A stretch of DNA of 20,000 bases from an uncultured virus (IMG/VR IMGVR_UViG_3300031707_000002) (lineage: Duplodnaviria > Heunggongvirae > Uroviricota > Caudoviricetes). The notes beneath the pieces are model-generated. The model saw only the letters and a list, made by a program, of their open reading frames with translations. It had not been told where the DNA came from and searched no databases. A program made the position numbers and the translations under genes. Positions 547-16,458 of this stretch are shown piece by piece (within the stretch, counting starts at the first letter, position 1; every line of letters begins with the position of its first letter). The DNA is taken from IMG/VR virus record IMGVR_UViG_3300031707_000002; one strand, given 5' to 3'.

Positions 547-3072
547 CTATATAGAAGAAAACAAACCGTGGTCTATCCCACCATAATCACCCGACTCTAA
601 AACCTTCACCAACTTCAACTCTTTCCCTGTCTTTGGATCAATCCTCTTAGGCATAACCCAACTATCATCAGACTGAGCTTCCTGTCTCAACCCAAGTGTA
701 AACACTATATCCCCAACAACCTCAGCATTAGTACGGCCAGCAAAATAAGAAGGATCAGCTTCAACAGCGTTCGCACAAGCGGCAACAAGAGCATCACTAC
801 AACCCTTGTCCCCTCTTGTACCATCATCATTTACATCAGGGTGATCTACCTTCTTAGATTCTACGAAATGATTAAGGTTAAAAAACTCCCGCTCCAAAAT
901 GGAGTAGTTGTACATAATAAGTCTATCTTCATAGATCAAATCCACTACTTGAAGATAAGCAGAGTCATCCTTATCAACAGACCTTCTCGCAGCATTAAAA
1001 GAGTTTGCTGTAAATATCTGAATTGTATCTTCTGATTGGTACTGATCTAACGAAATCTTCCCAAACCTCATACCCATCTGCCGAAGTTCAAAGATAAACT
1101 TACGGATTTTAGTGAATGAAATCCTATCAGGACTCTTGGGGGCCATCACAGACAAAACAATATCAGTCTCCAATTTTGGTATTCTCAACATCGTATTCGG
1201 GTCTTCGATCATCTCCGCTATGTGAACAATAGCAAGACCCAAAGTATCATGTGTTGTTGCATAGTCAAGGTGAACATACCTCAATGCTTCATGGTGACGT
1301 ATTAGCCCCTTGTAACTCGCCTTCCCACTCTCAATCACTTTGTTAAACATCAATTCTGGTAGAAAATAATCTATAAGATGCTGTGTTGTTTTCAGGGATA
1401 TTGTAAAAGTCTCTTTTGTAAAAGGATGTCTTATCTCTGAAGAAATACACTTCTGCCAAGCATACTTCGAGGAAAACAACTTACCAGACGGTGATATAGA
1501 CACACCAGCAATATTCCTCAAAGCTCCATACACATCATCTATAAAGTTTTGCTTAAAGTCCATCGGAACTGCTACGAAATTATCTATAAACTTAGCTGGT
1601 AACTTTACCATAACATCAGACACAGCTTTATCCGTGTCCACACTCTTACCATCTGCAATCATCTTATCCCTAATATCAATAATCTTGGCTCTTATAGCAT
1701 CAGAACTCATAGGAATAAGACCATTTACAGACGTAACAATAAAAGCATCTTCATTTTCAGAACCCTGAAATACAAAGAACCTATCATTAGAGTAGTTCCC
1801 CGGCTTAACATCCCAAAGAGTCGTAATAAAAATCGTCGCTGAGTTGTACTGTCTGGCTTGCCTAATTCGAGAAGAAACAAATGAAGACTGAATTGAAGCA
1901 GACGAAATAATAGCAGAAAATCCAGGGTCATAACCCTTCATCATAAACCGAGACATACGACGGTCTGTAACTTCCCTGTAAATCTTAGCCGCCTTTGCAG
2001 CATCACCAACTGAGGCACCTGAACCACCCCTACGGTAGAAGTCAGCCTCATCCATAATACACCCAAACAAGTTCGTTGATATAACAGAGAGATTATCAGA
2101 ACCCGGAAGGATTGCTATACGTTGAGGAAATTTGAGGATGGACTTGTATGTTCGGTCACGCGGGAACTCTTTTCGGAAGTACGGTATTGAATCCACCATC
2201 GACCTAAACTGCCCAAACCCAACTCTCTCCGCATGTGTCATGTTAATTGACAAATATGCAAACACTATGTCCGTCATGTCAGACAAACCAAACAATCTCT
2301 GAGGATAGTCATAACAAGACAATTCATAAAGTTTTCTAAGCCAACACACGAAAGCGAAGGTAGTCTTACCTGCACCTATTGAATTATGAACAAAAACACC
2401 AGAGGAAAGAGCAAAGTTATGGTATTTCTCTACCTCAAAATCATACACATCCTCTTTTTCCTCCAACTTTCTAACCACCACTACTCTTACAGGACAGGTT
2501 AAAAAACTCATCAAACCATCACCCGCCAAAAGCTCTTCCGCACTTCTATAAGAACCATCATCCAACATCCACAAATGATCAGGAGTACATCGTTCTTTAC
2601 CTCCATTACTAAGAACTACCTCTACAATATCTTTTTGCAAACCTGTTTTTCTACATCTACTTGCAACACCAATGCCATAATGACCATCCAAAGAACAAGA
2701 TACTACATCAAAAACATGACCAGATTCAGCTAACTCTTTTATTGTTCTATCCCGAAGGTCATATAACCGTATCTTAGTAGAACCAACAAAACATCCAGTA
2801 ATTATAGTTTCAGGTTTTTTAGAGTCTATATAAGTTGGTAATGCTTCCTTCCAGTACGGATACAAGTCTTTCGCAAGTGATCCCAAATAATATGTGTAAT
2901 TTACCCACTTATTAACAGGTACAATCTCTTTTACCTGAGTAGCTTTTAATACACCAGTCTCTTCAGAGATTGCACGACCCAACAAGCTCTCAATAGCGGA
3001 AAATTGAGAATCACCTATACCCTCAAAGAACTTTAGGGTTTCAGGAGAGATTTTTTCTGGGATCTCTGACAT
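547..3072 (-). CDS. terL: Terminase large subunit, intein-containing
   Basis: Walker A G|SIGAGKT restored after intein removal; Walker B GCIMDEAD; RNase H-like nuclease motifs YVHLDYA and KVDHP...DKGCSDA; next to portal. Confidence 0.93.
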   Translation of the reverse strand: MSEIPEKISPETLKFFEGIGDSQFSAIESLLGRAISEETGVLKATQVKEIVPVNKWVNYTYYLGSLAKDLYPYWKEALPTYIDSKKPETIITGCFVGSTKIRLYDLRDRTIKELAESGHVFDVVSCSLDGHYGIGVASRCRKTGLQKDIVEVVLSNGGKERCTPDHLWMLDDGSYRSAEELLAGDGLMSFLTCPVRVVVVRKLEEKEDVYDFEVEKYHNFALSSGVFVHNSIGAGKTTFAFVCWLRKLYELSCYDYPQRLFGLSDMTDIVFAYLSINMTHAERVGFGQFRSMVDSIPYFRKEFPRDRTYKSILKFPQRIAILPGSDNLSVISTNLFGCIMDEADFYRRGGSGASVGDAAKAAKIYREVTDRRMSRFMMKGYDPGFSAIISSASIQSSFVSSRIRQARQYNSATIFITTLWDVKPGNYSNDRFFVFQGSENEDAFIVTSVNGLIPMSSDAIRAKIIDIRDKMIADGKSVDTDKAVSDVMVKLPAKFIDNFVAVPMDFKQNFIDDVYGALRNIAGVSISPSGKLFSSKYAWQKCISSEIRHPFTKETFTISLKTTQHLIDYFLPELMFNKVIESGKASYKGLIRHHEALRYVHLDYATTHDTLGLAIVHIAEMIEDPNTMLRIPKLETDIVLSVMAPKSPDRISFTKIRKFIFELRQMGMRFGKISLDQYQSEDTIQIFTANSFNAARRSVDKDDSAYLQVVDLIYEDRLIMYNYSILEREFFNLNHFVESKKVDHPDVNDDGTRGDKGCSDALVAACANAVEADPSYFAGRTNAEVVGDIVFTLGLRQEAQSDDSWVMPKRIDPKTGKELKLVKVLESGDYGGIDHGLFSSI
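2383..2793 (-). mobile_element. Mini-intein (137 aa, C94-N230) in terL, no homing endonuclease
   Basis: Block A CFVGSTKI, block B CTPDHLW, block F VYDFEV..HNF, block G GVFVHN followed by +1 Ser. Confidence 0.95.
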
Positions 3073-4302: not shown

Positions 4303-4309
4303 AAGTAAA

Positions 4310-4397
4310 TACGGGGGATGGGACTCGAACCCACAGGCTCCCTTTCGGGAAAAGCGAATTTTAAGTTCGCCGTCTATGCCAATTCGACTACCCCCGC
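4310..4397 (-). tRNA. tRNA-Leu(TAA)
   Basis: Acceptor GCGGGGG/CCCCCGT, anticodon arm GCGAA-CTTAAAA-TTCGC, long variable arm, GTGGG-TTCGAGT-CCCAT; discriminator A, no encoded CCA. Confidence 0.95.
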
Positions 4398-4402
4398 AAA
4401 AA

Positions 4403-4482
4403 TACGGGTGAAGGGACTCGAACCCCCACGCTTTCGCATCAGATTTTGAATCTGAGATGTCTACCAATTCCATCACACCCGC
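4403..4482 (-). tRNA. tRNA-Leu(CAA)
   Basis: Acceptor GCGGGTG/CACCCGT, anticodon arm TCAGA-TTCAAAA-TCTGA, variable arm GC-GAAA-GC, TTCGAGT T-loop; no encoded CCA. Confidence 0.93.
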
Positions 4483-4487
4483 AAGTA

Positions 4488-7748: not shown

Positions 7749-8203
7749 CTACTTTCTTTTTTCAGTTTTCGTAGAACAACAACTCTTAGTTCCATCAGGG
7801 AACTCGTAAGTAAGCGTTCTTTCTAACAAATCTACCTTTAACTTCTCCCCTGTCAAATTAAAGTACATTGTCATAAGTCTTATCATGTGTAAACTCAACT
7901 CCCTTACCAAGTCACTATCCGTCGTAAGCTCAACTCCCTTACCAAGTCACTATCCGTCGTAAGATCCGAATTGATAATCTGCGTCAAAGAAACTACATCC
8001 CCGACAATTTTCTCTTGTTGCTCTCTCTGATCCCGCTGATTAACGGGTGAAGGCCGCACAAGATTTACCGTATTCAAAAAAGAAGACAATTCCACATCAC
8101 TTACTTTCTTCTCTATAACTTCCTGTCCCTTATCTCTGTTCTTCCATGAAAAAACAAGCCAACGTGCAACATCAACTATACAATCAGACAAACTTATTCT
8201 CAT
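7749..8203 (-). pseudogene. Hypothetical gene frameshifted by a 35-bp tandem duplication
   Basis: ATG 8203 with GGAGGAG RBS; removing one repeat copy gives a continuous 139-aa ORF ending at TAG 7749. Confidence 0.7.
7894..7963. repeat. Perfect 35-bp tandem duplication
   Basis: ctcaactcccttaccaagtcactatccgtcgtaag x2. Confidence 0.98.
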
Positions 8204-8218
8204 ACTCTCCTCCAATCA

Positions 8219-9965: not shown

Positions 9966-10286
9966 TTACTTTGATCCCACTCTCTGCTTTCCGCACATAG
10001 GACAGAATTTTACACCGTTATCTGTTGCTGTACCTTCAGAAAAACACCACTTATCCCCACACTCCGTATCATAAGAGTCTGTTGTAGAGTCGTATATCCA
10101 ATGACAAGTCTTCTTTGGCTTCGCACACACCTCTCCTTCCACTATGATCTCACCTCTTGGACGAACTGGAGGTGGAGGAGGTGGAGGAGGTGGAGGAGGT
10201 GGAGGAGGTGGAGGAGGTGCCGGAACTTTCTTCATTCGCTCCAATTTCTCTGGTGACGGTAAGGATCGTGGCGCGTTTGTAGTCAT
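9966..10286 (-). CDS. Hypothetical protein with a 17-Pro tract and C-terminal zinc ribbon
   Basis: P17; CHW...DTECG...KFCPMCGK; ATGA overlap with upstream gene. Confidence 0.75.
   Translation of the reverse strand: MTTNAPRSLPSPEKLERMKKVPAPPPPPPPPPPPPPPPPPVRPRGEIIVEGEVCAKPKKTCHWIYDSTTDSYDTECGDKWCFSEGTATDNGVKFCPMCGKQRVGSK
10167..10217. repeat. 9-bp tandem repeat encoding polyproline
   Basis: tggagg followed by (tggaggagg)x5. Confidence 0.97.
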
Positions 10287-10708
10287 TTCTCACCCACTAC
10301 CTTCAACAAATCATCCATTGTCTCTCTGTCAGCAACAACTACAAAAAGACGCAAAAGATGGTCTACAGCATCTTTAAGTTCTACCCACTTAGCTTTGAAC
10401 TTAACATAAAACTTCTCTGGTAACTCATACTCAGAATAGTTAATCTGCTTTTGCATATCAAAAATCTTTGTCTTAACAACAGCTTCAACATCAGAAACAA
10501 GTGAAGGTGAAACTACTAAACGAACTCTTCTATTCCAATACTCTACCGCTTCCTTCTCAGAGTAAACCAACCCACCACACGTAGCTCCACAATCACACTG
10601 CACTCGAAAATCACCAAGATCGTCAAGCTCCTCGTACATCTCAGGAGTACCGCCACAAAAAGGACAAGGCAGTAACCCCTCTACTGGATGGTCTGTCTTA
10701 ACACTCAT
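10283..10708 (-). CDS. Lar-family (restriction alleviation-like) zinc-finger protein
   Basis: LLPCPFCGG...VQCDCGA...EAVEYWNRR; likely start 10708 after AAGGAG. Confidence 0.78.
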   Translation of the reverse strand: MSVKTDHPVEGLLPCPFCGGTPEMYEELDDLGDFRVQCDCGATCGGLVYSEKEAVEYWNRRVRLVVSPSLVSDVEAVVKTKIFDMQKQINYSEYELPEKFYVKFKAKWVELKDAVDHLLRLFVVVADRETMDDLLKVVGEK

Positions 10709-10863
10709 TGAAACTCCTTCCACACATAACCATGATTCTCTGTGTCAGGATCTACCTTCCACTTCTCATGTTCTAACCTACCATCATCCTGGTCTTCATT
10801 CTCTCTTATATCAGGCTCTTTACCTGCCCCATGAAGAAAATTCTCGTCATCCTCGTACCCCAT
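10705..10863 (-). CDS. Small acidic hypothetical protein (52 aa, not in the ORF track)
   Basis: MGYEDDENFLHG...WKEFQ; fills the gap exactly with an ATGA overlap. Confidence 0.55.
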   Translation of the reverse strand: MGYEDDENFLHGAGKEPDIRENEDQDDGRLEHEKWKVDPDTENHGYVWKEFQ

Positions 10864-11250: not shown

Positions 11251-11469
11251 TCAACTTTTCGGGGTCTGTTGGCAATGCTTCAAAGTATGATTATCAAACA
11301 TGTACCAATAATTTCTTTTTAGAGGACTCTTAGCCTTGCTAACCTCACGAATGAAAAACTTTGCCTGCTCAAGACCTTTAATGAAAGAGTCCTGATCAAT
11401 ACCCTTTGGGGCCATATTAGCTTTACACCACTCAATTTCCTTATCTACAGCATCAAGATACTCCTGCAT
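11251..11469 (-). CDS. Hypothetical protein
   Basis: GGAGG RBS; 72 aa. Confidence 0.65.
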   Translation of the reverse strand: MQEYLDAVDKEIEWCKANMAPKGIDQDSFIKGLEQAKFFIREVSKAKSPLKRNYWYMFDNHTLKHCQQTPKS

Positions 11470-11488
11470 ATTCTTCCTCCATTATTTC

Positions 11489-11692
11489 TCAACCTATAGT
11501 GTCAAGCCGTGTTTTGGGCTTTAGCTGTTGTACGAAGTGGCGCAAATTCCGCAGTGTCCGCCACGCCTTATCCAACAGCGTGTACCAATGATAAACTATG
11601 AATGCACGCGGGAATCCTGACCAGAAATGCCACTTACCGCAATACGGATAGTTACAGAACGATTTACTTTCAATAATGAAACCTCTCCACAT
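11489..11692 (-). CDS. Cassette 8 hypothetical protein
   Basis: 67-aa ORF inside cassette 11748-11493; weak RBS. Confidence 0.55.
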   Translation of the reverse strand: MWRGFIIESKSFCNYPYCGKWHFWSGFPRAFIVYHWYTLLDKAWRTLRNLRHFVQQLKPKTRLDTIG

Positions 11693-11742
11693 AAACTTCT
11701 ACTTTCCGGCGCGGCCTATAAATTCAGGCTTTGCGCCATTTT

Positions 11743-11866
11743 GTACAACGTCTACGCAATGGGCGATAGTTTGCCCCTACAATTACACTGGCCTACCACG
11801 ACCACATGTATGCCATCGGTGTCCTCAAAATAATGAGGGCAAATTTCGGCCCTTGCGGTGTTGGGT
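11743..11866 (-). repeat. attC-like site 7
   Basis: ACCCAAC-ACCGCAAGGGCCGAAATTTGCCC...GGGCAAACTATCGCCCATTGCG-TAGAC-GTTGTAC. Confidence 0.82.
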
Positions 11867-11988
11867 GCCGGTTTGTCAACCACCACGCGGTTGGCCGCGC
11901 TCCAACCGATCTCCGCACTCACCATATCTATCTGATAATCACCAGGCCCTTGCGTCTTCCACCACTCACGGAATGTCTTCGCGGCCAT
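11752..11988 (-). CDS. Cassette 7 hypothetical protein
   Basis: GGAGGTG RBS, MAAKTFREWW...; C-terminus encoded by the attC-like site. Confidence 0.7.
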   Translation of the reverse strand: MAAKTFREWWKTQGPGDYQIDMVSAEIGWSAANRVVVDKPAPNTARAEICPHYFEDTDGIHVVVVGQCNCRGKLSPIA

Positions 11989-12015
11989 ATCACCTCCAAA
12001 GTTGACAAACTGGCA

Positions 12016-12141
12016 TCCCAACGTCTTGCGAAACGTGCGCCGTGCTACAGATTATAGTGGCACACCATACACGCTTCGCCGAGCGAATACCGCCCTGCAC
12101 GCTCACCACAGTTCGGACATGGCGCACTTTTGCTGTTGGTT
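12016..12141 (-). repeat. attC-like site 6
   Basis: AACCAAC-AGCAAAAGTGCGCCATG...CACGGCGCACGTTTCGC-AAGAC-GTTGGGA. Confidence 0.82.
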
Positions 12142-12260
12142 GTCTGTTGAGCGAGTACAGCGGTTTTCAGAGTTTGCCATGCTTCATCCGCAAGAACGAC
12201 ATTACCTACATGTATAGCACAATTTTTCTCGATAGCATCAATAGCCTCGATTGGCGTCAT
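12045..12260 (-). CDS. Cassette 6 protein with C-terminal CxxC...CxxC
   Basis: AGGAG RBS; CPNC...CMVC lies in the attC loop. Confidence 0.7.
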   Translation of the reverse strand: MTPIEAIDAIEKNCAIHVGNVVLADEAWQTLKTAVLAQQTTNSKSAPCPNCGERAGRYSLGEACMVCHYNL

Positions 12261-12296
12261 GGCATACTCCTATAATAAATTTTAGAGCGAAATTGC

Positions 12297-12356
12297 AAAC
12301 AACGTTCCGGCAAATTGCCGAAGTGTGCATCACATTTTGGCATTTGCCTGTTGTGT
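12297..12356 (-). repeat. attC-like site 5 (shortest, 60 bp)
   Basis: ACACAAC-AGGCAAATGCCAAAATGTG-ATG-CACACTTCGGCAATTTGCC-GGAAC-GTTGTTT. Confidence 0.85.
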
Positions 12357-12554
12357 GCTGTTTTTTGCGCCACCGCTGCTTTCAGAGGTTGGCGGGGATG
12401 GAACGAGCATCCAATGCGTTATTTTGCAATTATACTCGCAATGGCCAGCAATAAAATCCTGTGCGTGAATAGTCTCGATACTGCCGTTGTCAAAATGAAC
12501 TAATATCGGGCCATCGTAATCCGGGACAACACCTTCACCTTTTTTGTACCACAT
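12330..12554 (-). CDS. Cassette 5 DUF551-like protein
   Basis: AGGAGG RBS before ATG 12554; MWYKK...ITHWMLVPSPP. Confidence 0.72.
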   Translation of the reverse strand: MWYKKGEGVVPDYDGPILVHFDNGSIETIHAQDFIAGHCEYNCKITHWMLVPSPPTSESSGGAKNSTQQANAKM

Positions 12555-12591
12555 AGCCAACCTCCTATAATTTGAAAGCGCAAAAAATTGC

Positions 12592-12724
12592 ATACAACGT
12601 TTTGCTCTATTGCGACGTGCGTGACAACCACTTGTCAACCTTATTACGGTAGCACTCCGAACAACGCGGAGATTTGGTCCGCACAAAAACGCACTCTCCG
12701 CATGGCGTAATAGCGCTGTTGGGT
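12592..12724 (-). repeat. attC-like site 4
   Basis: ACCCAAC-AGCGCTATTACGCCATGCG...CGCACGTCGCAATAGAGC-AAAAC-GTTGTAT. Confidence 0.8.
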
Positions 12725-12864
12725 GCCGTGGAATGAGCATCCGCCAGATAGTGGCCACAGTCGCTGCACAAAGAATAGTTGCTGTCCCGAACTATGCATA
12801 CATCTCGCTTAATGCAATCAAGTTTTTTGTGGCCACCTATAACCTCCAAGCGAATGAATGGCAT
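12607..12864 (-). CDS. Cassette 4 Cys-rich protein (start uncertain)
   Basis: CSDC, CGEC, CSEC; the RBS-linked GTG at 12836 is one base out of frame. Confidence 0.55.
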   Translation of the reverse strand: MPFIRLEVIGGHKKLDCIKRDVCIVRDSNYSLCSDCGHYLADAHSTAPNSAITPCGECVFVRTKSPRCSECYRNKVDKWLSRTSQ

Positions 12865-13002
12865 CCCAACGATCCGCGCTACTGGTTCCGTTGCTCGATC
12901 TCACGCAGAAAATCACAAAACCTCATTTTTTGCGCATCAGACCGAGAAGAAGACAATGCCAGTTTGCGCACGAGAGCAATGGCATCTATAGCGCTGTTGG
13001 GT
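12864..13002 (-). repeat. attC-like site 3
   Basis: ACCCAAC-AGCGCTATAGATGCCATTGCTC...GAGCAACGGAACCAGTAGCGC-GGATC-GTTGGGA. Confidence 0.8.
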
Positions 13003-13103
13003 GCCGTTGTTGACAATTCCTCCGGTTTGGAGGCGCAGCGATCGCACGAACCTGCCGGTATGCCGTGCTGACACCACCCGTTGAGCAATACGCTATCATT
13101 CAT
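12879..13103 (-). CDS. Cassette 3 hypothetical protein
   Basis: GAGGAGG RBS before ATG 13103; CQHGI...CDRC. Confidence 0.68.
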   Translation of the reverse strand: MNDSVLLNGWCQHGIPAGSCDRCASKPEELSTTAPNSAIDAIALVRKLALSSSRSDAQKMRFCDFLREIEQRNQ

Positions 13104-13142
13104 TTTGCGCCTCCTCGGCATATCGACTTGTCAACTATGGCA

Positions 13143-13270
13143 TCCCAACGTCCGAGCAATGTACGCAGTGCTACTGCTTGTGACAAATCGGAACTCCGGT
13201 ACAGCAACAACTTTTGATAGGATACTTGCAGCTCGCATACAGAGAGCATTGCGTACTTGCTTTGTTGGTG
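13143..13270 (-). repeat. attC-like site 2
   Basis: CACCAAC-AAAGCAAGTACGCAATGCT...AGCACTGCGTACATTGCT-CGGAC-GTTGGGA. Confidence 0.83.
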
Positions 13271-13383
13271 GATGTAAATCTTTCCACCATAGCGTTCTGT
13301 GCGGCATTCCAGACGTTGCTATACTTCTCCATATCTCCGCCGCCGCCAACGTTGCTCCACCACTGCTCAAATGTCATTTCCAT
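13171..13383 (-). CDS. Cassette 2 hypothetical protein
   Basis: MEMTFEQWW...VWNAAQ; Cys-rich tail in the attC loop. Confidence 0.65.
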   Translation of the reverse strand: MEMTFEQWWSNVGGGGDMEKYSNVWNAAQNAMVERFTSTNKASTQCSLYASCKYPIKSCCCTGVPICHKQ

Positions 13384-13417
13384 GCCGCACCTACAATTCC
13401 AAAGAAAGGTTTATTTC

Positions 13418-13495
13418 CACCAACGTTTGCGCAACAGCCGAAGCCGCTACGCCCCCTTGCTACGCTTACGCGGTTTTGGCTTTGCGCTGTTGTTT
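13418..13495 (-). repeat. attC-like site 1
   Basis: AAACAAC-AGCGCAAAGCCAAAACCGC...GCGGCTTCGGCTGTTGCGC-AAAC-GTTGGTG. Confidence 0.85.
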
Positions 13496-13710
13496 GTTGT
13501 TGCCGTGCGCTCAACTGCTTTCTGCGCGGCGGCGATTTCGCTACGTAACGATTCAATAGCTTTGTCAACGCCGTGACCAAGGTTGTCCTTTAACATACTG
13601 TCGAAAAGCATAGAATACACTTGGTCGGTGATAATGTTTTCGGCGTTGACATAAGGATATCCAAACTCACGCATATTGCGGATAGCCGCAGAAATCAATT
13701 TATCTCGCAT
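13447..13710 (-). CDS. Cassette 1 hypothetical protein
   Basis: AAGGA RBS before ATG 13710; MRDKLISAAIRNMREFGYP. Confidence 0.72.
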   Translation of the reverse strand: MRDKLISAAIRNMREFGYPYVNAENIITDQVYSMLFDSMLKDNLGHGVDKAIESLRSEIAAAQKAVERTATTNNSAKPKPRKRSKGA

Positions 13711-13761
13711 ACATTCCTTTCCGCCGCGCCTATAATATGGTCGCACGGCAATTGCAAACAA

Positions 13762-14049
13762 CTACCTCAATAACGCACTCTCAAACCGTAGACATTTCTC
13801 TTTTTCTCTCCTTAATTCCTTTACTTCCCGAAACTTACTTGCATTATCAACCTCTAACCAAGTAACCCTCTGTTGTAACCTGTCAATCTCTTTTCTTAAC
13901 CAAGCAACCGCATCCGAAGTACCATTACGCTTATTATCCTTACTCTCACTCTCATTCTCACTTGTAAGTCTTTTTGCAATTCCGAGTAACCAAGTGTTAT
14001 CCCTGAGATACACACGCGAATTTACAACAACATCAATGCCCCGCACCAC
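13762..14049 (-). CDS. Hypothetical coiled-coil protein
   Basis: 95 aa; its TAG supplies the G of the first cassette's GTT. Confidence 0.62.
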   Translation of the reverse strand: MVRGIDVVVNSRVYLRDNTWLLGIAKRLTSENESESKDNKRNGTSDAVAWLRKEIDRLQQRVTWLEVDNASKFREVKELRREKEKCLRFESALLR

Positions 14050-14251
14050 AAACCTCTTTCAATTCAACTCTCTTATTCCATTGCGTCAAGGCAGGATAAT
14101 GCATAACAACCCCACATCCACTACACTTCACAACCTGCTCATTCCCTACATCATTCTGTATCGACTCCCAATCTATATACGCTTTCCCGCCACAAAAAGG
14201 ACATGGAAGTAACTTCTTCTTGTCTCTATCGTTAATTAAACCTTCCCACAT
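14033..14251 (-). CDS. Second Lar-family zinc-finger protein
   Basis: LLPCPFCGGKA...VKCSGCG...QWNKRV; GAGG RBS before ATG 14251. Confidence 0.78.
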   Translation of the reverse strand: MWEGLINDRDKKKLLPCPFCGGKAYIDWESIQNDVGNEQVVKCSGCGVVMHYPALTQWNKRVELKEVCGAGH

Positions 14252-14273
14252 TTCAACCTCACAAAATAAAACA

Positions 14274-14456
14274 CTACCCACCATAATGACAATGATGACA
14301 GCAGTACCCGTTCTTTACAAGATGGTCACACTTAGGACACCTGTGGGTCACTACCCAAACTCTATAGTCAGCATTATCCCTAAGAAGCTGATCAACCTGA
14401 AGTTCAAGACTCTCAATTCTGGTATCCTTTGACTGTCCCGGCAAACACTCAGCCAT
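14274..14456 (-). CDS. Small coiled-coil / zinc-ribbon protein
   Basis: CPKC...CCHHC. Confidence 0.65.
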   Translation of the reverse strand: MAECLPGQSKDTRIESLELQVDQLLRDNADYRVWVVTHRCPKCDHLVKNGYCCHHCHYGG

Positions 14457-15708: not shown

Positions 15709-15751
15709 TGTCTTACACCTCTAATATACTAAACATAATCAGCAAAGTCAA
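15709..15751 (-). promoter_or_regulatory. Sigma70-type (early) promoter
   Basis: TTGACT-17 bp-TATATT followed by AGAGGTGTAAGACA; AT-rich upstream. Confidence 0.82.
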
Positions 15752-16415: not shown

Positions 16416-16458
16416 TGTCTTACACCTCTAATATACGCTATTTCGCCGGTAAAGTCAA
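16416..16458 (-). promoter_or_regulatory. Sigma70-type (early) promoter
   Basis: TTGACT-17 bp-TATATT followed by AGAGGTGTAAGACA; shares an identical 21-mer with the promoter at 15709. Confidence 0.82.

Follow-up and report, generated by a model that had tools for sequence, protein, structure and literature searches.

A phage array of integron-like cassettes whose recombination hairpins appear to encode the ends of their proteins

Can a DNA recombination site also serve as the coding sequence for part of a protein? The question is raised by an array of small gene cassettes in a 20,000-nucleotide (nt) stretch of DNA (the window) from the uncultured virus IMG/VR IMGVR_UViG_3300031707_000002 (Caudoviricetes), where the open reading frames (ORFs) run into the hairpin-forming sites that separate one cassette from the next. 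A sequence-only reading of this DNA had proposed that the hairpin loops encode Cys-rich, zinc-binding protein tails and that exchange at the AAC core of the site could swap C termini. The locus is probably best explained as a phage-borne, integron-like array in which the recombination hairpin forms the 3′ end of the gene, a XerA-like enzyme carries out the exchange, and the tails bind zinc.

The array and its coding hairpins

The source record is a complete phage genome of 167,660 bp with direct terminal repeats, whose DNA is present in sediment metagenomes. The array lies on the minus strand amid small co-oriented genes and is comprised of eight bodies (GTT...AAC, 153–274 nt) alternating with seven hairpins (AAC...GTT, 52–131 nt), extending over 11489–13779 and thus beyond both ends of the interval 11752..13495 first assigned to it. 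All eight ORFs, read on the minus strand, cross the AAC core, as the sequence-only reading had stated. In six of them the triplet is read as Asn, and the six motifs (TNNSAKP, STNKAST, APNSAID, APNSAIT, TTNSKSA, and APNTARA) were recovered exactly, together with the four Cys-rich tails (CPNC...CMVC in cassette 6, CGEC...CSEC in 4, CSLYASC...CCC...CH in 2, and CPHY...CNC in 7); cassettes 5 and 8 pass the core in the +1 frame as Gln-Gln. The Asn frame in six of eight is weak by itself (binomial p ∼0.02) but agrees with the wider family, where long sites divide by AAC frame into 113 (Asn frame), 60, and 12. The expected stop in or near the right arm was found in most cassettes, the exceptions being cassette 5, which stops at the apex of its short hairpin, and cassette 8, which has no right arm. 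In cassettes 1–7 the stop lies 22, 21, 8, 8, 26, 22, and 2 nt, respectively, short of the G in the following GTT; no stop is placed beyond that G.

Related loci were retrieved with patterns taken from the cassette start and blind to the tail (137 viral, at least 122 metagenome, and 23 GTDB loci), and sites were called by a weight matrix combined with arm pairing. A first 15-base pattern proved too loose, its 119 loci containing an array only in a twin of the window array, and was used as the negative control. The control loci (315,671 bases) gave no site calls except in a twin of the window array, and looser cut-offs gave two false calls; in the phage itself six of the seven window hairpins were called and nothing further anywhere in its 167,660 bp. 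The counts exclude five loci that are twins of the window array (six with L407) and 144 of 355 bodies lacking complementary ends. The 543 non-redundant sites have a bimodal length distribution (∼40–90 and 110–170 nt). Called sites occur in only 4 of the 23 GTDB rows (three short contigs of metagenome-assembled genomes), and the family therefore appears to be phage-borne.

For the read-through counts the gene was chosen from the body alone. Homologues do not end before the core: AAC is crossed by 159 of 211 validated cassettes and by 72 of the 79 with long hairpins. In 62 of these 72 the stop falls 0–35 nt before the G, compared with 6 and 5 in the shifted frames, and the stops cluster 1–13 and 18–30 nt ahead of the next cassette. 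Loop interiors contain 0.85% stops in the gene frame, as against 2.6 and 8.1% in the shifted frames and 4.4% in reverse, and 9.7% Cys, as against 3.8, 5.5, and 2.7%, respectively; CxxC is present in 33 of 72 loops (3 and 7 in shifted frames). Within a wider set, 160 of 185 long-hairpin cassettes are open through the loop. Four or more Cys were found in 80 of 160 long tails, where shuffling predicts 6 (a 13-fold excess), and two Cys/His knuckles in 68 (3 and 9 in shifted frames). Constraint at the codon level was also observed, with a loop ratio of nonsynonymous to synonymous substitution (dN/dS) of 0.13 and 5/6/20 mismatches by codon position (Fisher p = 3e-7; three independent pairs), and five loop pairs picked by DNA alignment gave 8/11/25 differences. 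Zinc-finger-like Pfam matches (E 0.01) were obtained for 15 of 80 tails, one of them over the curated cut-off; the 80 were the four of the window and 76 others, with 3 of 79 Cys-rich tails left out. Taken together, these comparisons give good support to long hairpins being dual-coding, that is, acting as both site and protein tail, as had been proposed from the window, and the spacing of the Cys residues suggests that the Cys-rich tails would bind zinc.

Read-through could also be explained by translational coupling, in which the ribosome melts the mRNA hairpin to reach the next cassette and the tail residues are incidental. In class 1 integrons, ribosomes are blocked by the stem-loops of attC, and this block is lifted by a short ORF lying within the site (PMC8876359); stops clustered just before the next cassette would fit such a role. 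Coupling predicts open frames but not the four-Cys excess, the CxxC spacing, or the low dN/dS of the loops, and most cassettes carry a ribosome site of their own, making this explanation very improbable.

Scans of the eight array proteins against Pfam and PHROG gave nothing above cut-off, ORF5 alone having a modest PHROG match (DUF551/phrog_924, weak), and an Rfam scan of 11300–14100 gave no match up to E 10. A single-sequence AlphaFold model of ORF6 was uninformative (mean predicted local distance difference test score, pLDDT, of 51). Similar DNA is absent from 50,697 deposited phage records, and the listed sequencing runs with phage DNA include no RNA run. The start of ORF4 is uncertain, as homologues start ∼11 residues later, at a position where the matching GTG (12836) is out of frame here.

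Features of the cassette array, with positions in the window
Feature	Position	Strand	Remarks
Array entry site, putatively attI-like	13751..13779	-	No hairpin; two 11-nt arms around a 7-nt spacer ending GTAG; second arm is the start of cassette 1; spacer TAG is the stop of upstream ORF 13762-14049
Cassette 1 body (GTT...AAC)	13489..13762	-	Complementary ends
ORF1, 87 aa	13447..13710	-	Asn74 on core; basic tail of 14 aa
Hairpin 1, 70 nt	13422..13491	-	
ORF2, 70 aa	13171..13383	-	Asn40; Cys-rich tail of 31 aa; body 13264-13424
Hairpin 2, 120 nt, probably coding	13147..13266	-	Missed by site caller; placed by hand
ORF3, 80 aa	12879..13121	-	Asn42; 39-aa tail with one Cys; body 12996-13149; alternative start ATG 13103 with stronger ribosome site ahead
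Hairpin 3, 131 nt, probably coding	12868..12998	-	
ORF4, 85 aa	12607..12864	-	Asn49; 37-aa CxxC...CxxC tail; body 12718-12870; over 12836-12864 the frame is open from an ATG lying 6 nt into the cassette
Hairpin 4, 125 nt, probably coding	12596..12720	-	
ORF5, 74 aa	12330..12554	-	AAC in +1 frame; 7-aa tail; body 12350-12598
Hairpin 5, 52 nt	12301..12352	-	
ORF6, 71 aa	12045..12260	-	Asn42; 30-aa CxxC...CxxC tail; body 12135-12303
Hairpin 6, 118 nt, probably coding	12020..12137	-	
ORF7, 78 aa	11752..11988	-	Asn43; 36-aa tail (three Cys, two His); body 11860-12022
Hairpin 7, 116 nt, probably coding	11747..11862	-	
ORF8, 67 aa	11489..11692	-	AAC in +1 frame; body 11527-11749
Hairpin 8, truncated	11512..11529	-	Left arm only; closes array

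Site architecture and the movement of whole cassettes

The sites fold preferentially as the non-coding (bottom) strand, with 776 G:T pairs compared with 129 and the bottom strand more stable in 356 of 544 sites. A one-sided bulge of 4–5 nt precedes the GTT, and extra bases, mostly purines located 11–12 nt from the G, are found on the 3′ arm of the coding strand (the AAC arm of the bottom strand) in 462 instances and on the other arm in 120. The bodies also fold, their ends pairing over 21 bp with a 2-nt bubble, and a perfect inner stem of at least 7 bp is present in 161 of 198 bodies (control 7%), usually right after a conserved TTRTAG.

The TTRTAG motif lies 28–36 nt into six of the eight window bodies and also 21–29 nt before the GTT in many hairpin loops, and a GC-rich inner stem starts directly after it in 80 of 97 scored stems. 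It is possibly a protein-binding site, a nick guide, or a promoter element; scans for sigma-70 promoters and terminators gave results at chance level, and it is therefore not called a promoter. A link to HUH/REP elements was not supported, PF01797 being found in 2 of 34 records and in none of the 14 near-complete ones, with both matches resembling ordinary IS200/IS605 copies. At one locus (L414, G028) an IS200/IS605-type tnpA is inserted within a cassette body, just past its 5′ arm.

The head of the array is formed by a non-hairpin site with the sequence GTAG/TT (the slash marks the proposed point of exchange), whose arm-spacer-arm layout in our estimation recalls dif sites. Ten openings of this kind were found in other arrays, nine of them without a called hairpin within 700 nt upstream, and none of 513 hairpins ends in GTAG/TT. 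In all three cases with an adjacent recombinase gene (L401–L403) the site lies downstream of that gene.

Sequence pairs indicate what moves. Independent bodies at least 97% alike over their last 90 bases kept the same hairpin in six of seven pairs, and pairs at least 97% alike after the GTT kept the preceding hairpin in only 3 of 12. Cassette 6 is found whole in L406 at array position 1, directly behind the GTAG/TT site; contigs for cassettes 1, 2, and 6 start and end at G/TT, that of run X5 covering 13421–13762, which is cassette 1 from one G/TT to the next. On this evidence the usual mobile unit is a body plus its hairpin, apparently cut at G/TT, and because the unit runs from G/TT to G/TT, stops almost never lie past that point.

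Several further observations concern these junctions. Deep sibling-phage contigs of run X5 match the window over 11300–11750 and 13421–13950 (the flanks and cassettes 1 and 8), the contig over cassette 8 departing at the G/TT junction into a different hairpin; coverage of cassettes 2–7 in this run was low or absent and was not used as evidence. Contigs of runs X5 and X6 match the window up to 11512, where the X6 contig runs on into a complete hairpin. Two otherwise identical cassettes (L130:2376 and L149:5268) differ in three of the four bulge bases before the GTT, more than expected from point mutation, and this may be a relic of strand exchange within the spacer.

These features are shared in large part with integrons and with clusters of attC sites lacking an integron integrase (CALINs): tandem single-gene cassettes, AAC...GTT hairpins that are more stable on the non-coding strand with a G:T bias (PMC9892861; PMC5027507), a unit running from G/TT to G/TT, a putative non-hairpin entry site at the array head, and arrays without a recombinase. 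The array works like an integron, yet it is not a classical integron or attC array because the integrase, the site geometry, and the ORF overlap all depart from the integron pattern. The phage ORFs reach 7–45 codons into the site, whereas the ACID database permits an overlap of at most 15 bp (PMC2674596). In attC the extrahelical bases are on the arm of the bottom strand that faces the AAC triplet (PMC5027507), whereas in the phage site it is the AAC-bearing arm of the non-coding strand that has the bulge and the extra base. Furthermore, the body ends pair and enclose an inner stem, bodies and sites re-pair with one another, and the linked recombinase is XerA-like, co-oriented with the array, and lacks the I2 insert. 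That an ordinary bacterial CALIN was captured by the phage, with loss of the core TAA giving neutral read-through, would account for the cores, the units, the folding bias, and the lack of an integrase in the phage (PMC9892861). The site geometry, the abundance of the signature in viral and metagenome loci (50 and more than 122, respectively) but not in GTDB, the insert-free recombinase, and the constrained loops all speak against it, leaving this the least credible of the explanations considered.

Exchange of heads and tails and the recombinase

The proposition that tails never leave heads, since the cut is at G/TT, was rejected, as heads and tails of window cassettes were found re-paired. 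Bodies 85–97% alike kept their hairpin in none of six pairs, and related long hairpins were on unrelated bodies in seven of nine. Hairpin 6, which accompanies its own body in L406, recurs in L408 with hardly any change in its loop, although there both the head before it and the cassette after it are unrelated; head 6 is paired with another tail (P0003). Head 4 was found on seven other tails and tail 4 on one other head; six long repeat proteins and the self match, among 15 phmmer matches, were dropped before counting. Cassette 2 occurs in four head-tail combinations, and in run X7 its body is joined at 98% to another hairpin, with the break one base past AAC. In L166 head 7 (73% identical) is joined to another tail, the arms of hairpin 7 enclose other loops in L121 and L130, and in L317 a head related to that of ORF5 has a Cys-rich tail. 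A comparison of 168 long-tailed cassettes gave 18 pairs with related heads and 55 with related tails, only one pair being common to both groups. Most breakpoints are within a few bases of AAC. Exchange of heads and tails at or near AAC, rarer than movement at G/TT, is well supported by the sequence pairs. The swapping of C termini at the AAC core predicted by the sequence-only reading was therefore seen, with junctions at or beside the core Asn and with one head on different tails and the reverse, although the usual crossover is at G/TT and keeps head and tail together. Random joining would leave about half of fusions in frame, and since 160 of 185 are open, selection for matched frames is suggested.

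The phage itself encodes a RecA-family protein. Matches to PF00589 were found in 5 of 49 array-bearing records, three of them to genes of 272–298 aa directly upstream of the array on the same strand (L401–L403). These enzymes score best as XerA and fall below the TIGR02249 cut-off, and that of L401 aligns to IntI4 in two pieces (residues 20–182 and 245–308) around the missing insert. Among deposited phage records the best matches to the recombinase, of the 20 listed, are less than 30% identical, and a profile built from the three found no others among 50 records. In integrons a second strand exchange is prevented by the IntI insert together with the extrahelical bases (PMC4792948), and low-frequency cutting of the top strand takes place at the AAC of R'' (PMC5027507).

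In the most probable reading, each cassette consists of a body, providing complementary ends, an inner stem, a ribosome site, and the protein head, and a hairpin, providing the tail and stop. The comparisons show whole cassettes moving from G/TT to G/TT and apparently entering at the GTAG/TT site. A XerA-like tyrosine recombinase without the IntI insert, acting in trans in this phage, would exchange G/TT on folded single-stranded DNA. The same enzyme might occasionally act near AAC as well: it could cut the coding strand, in folded form, at AA/C, or it could carry through the second strand exchange, which is suppressed by IntI. By both routes a body would become joined to a different hairpin with no inversion, selection would retain fusions with matched frames, and the Cys-rich tails would bind zinc.

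The chimeras could instead have arisen within the conserved 15–45 nt around the core, through strand annealing or homologous recombination, with dual-coding hairpins and G/TT movement left as they are. The RecA-family protein would be suited to this, the breakpoints are spread between 22 nt upstream of AAC and 11 nt downstream of it, and body arms around different interiors, like hairpin arms around different loops, are not explained by a core-specific cut. The shared homology is short and imperfect, however; in seven swapped pairs sharing a body, identity is at background by the fourth base past AAC on average, and in five of seven pairs sharing a hairpin it starts at the core. Recombination of this kind is considered the less likely explanation, but it is a serious rival and distinctly more probable than coupling or CALIN capture.

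Several observations count against the integron-like reading with coding hairpins and a XerA-like enzyme. The phage genome contains no tyrosine or serine recombinase, and a XerA-like gene is present in only 1 of 13 near-complete array-bearing records, so most arrays, that of the window included, would need the enzyme in trans. In two of the seven hairpin-sharing pairs the sequences are alike 19–22 nt upstream of AAC, and body-sharing pairs remain alike 2 to 11 nt beyond it. Cassettes 1, 3, and 8 yielded no head-tail swap, and misjoining of short repeats can occur in metagenome assemblies, the source of the pairs. Nine of the 11 ORF6 relatives share mainly a 15-residue linker (the body arm) and not the whole head; this linker is constrained by pairing with the ribosome site and start, and because linkers and arms are shared without whole heads, arms also appear to be reused around new interiors as a third level of exchange. 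Tails with fewer than four Cys make up half of the long ones, the four Cys-rich tails of the window gave no Pfam match at E 0.01, the dN/dS value comes from a small sample, and the coding case was built entirely by comparing sequences.

A bolder form of the integron-like reading is that the array is a phage-specific gene-building machine, in which one XerA-like enzyme, free of the integron's block on the second exchange, both stacks cassettes by cutting at G/TT and re-pairs heads with zinc-binding or helical tails, the arms serving as reusable frames (ribosome site, linker, and stop) for new loops. This is put forward tentatively, as an idea with somewhat less than an even chance of being right.

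Shufflons exchange the C terminus of PilV. The IncI1/IncI2 shufflon (Rci; PMC5430464) resembles the array in that a tyrosine recombinase varies proteins by rearranging gene ends, but it inverts double-stranded segments at short repeats and does so for one gene. The phage cassettes show no inversion, are all co-oriented with a start of their own, have many unrelated heads and a site that itself encodes the tail, and the genome has no recombinase. Synthetic attC sites within coding sequence (Nivina et al., per PMC8618304) are likewise folded recombination sites that code for protein; those were engineered, whereas the phage hairpins are natural and the loop itself gives a conserved protein module. 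CTX-phi and other Xer exploiters (PMC4792948) have a folded single-stranded phage site and a Xer-type enzyme without the I2 domain, but in those cases an entire phage is inserted into dif of the host, whereas here small cassettes stack within phage genomes, some of which encode their own enzyme. In the literature covered, which included few subscription papers, neither coding hairpins of natural origin nor the present family were found described, and the supplementary list of 17 phage CALINs in PMC9892861 could hold such arrays.

Neighbouring features and significance

Elsewhere in the window, two Lar-like zinc-ribbon genes (10283–10723 and 14033–14284, minus strand) lie on either side of the array region. 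A 106-aa ORF (9966–10286, minus strand) has a run of 17 prolines from a 9-nt tandem repeat and a Cys-rich end. The 841-aa gene at 547–3072 (minus strand), which from its motifs we take to resemble a terminase large subunit with an intein-like insert, gave only a weak PHROG match. Two tRNA-Leu genes (anticodons TAA and CAA) are at 4309–4483 (minus strand), a repeated intergenic motif, possibly a phage promoter, is upstream of small genes at 15709–15751 and 16416–16458, and a 35-nt tandem duplication at 7889–7958 covers the end of ORF 7904–8215.

The array offers a concrete and testable route by which new cassettes, new small phage genes, and new proteins could arise. Its recombination site appears to double as a protein module under selection, and across phages the assortment of heads and tails is nearly independent. 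The system is also a compact, naturally occurring tool for the in-frame shuffling of domains. Annotation rules that bar overlap between ORF and site would truncate or miss such genes. Integron integrases have been proposed to descend from Xer-like enzymes without the insert (PMC4792948), and the insert-free enzyme linked to some arrays allows a direct test of that idea. Should the array prove to be a gene-building machine, it would represent natural domain shuffling at a site defined by structure, a system from which integrons may have originated, and the source of numerous orphan microproteins of phages.

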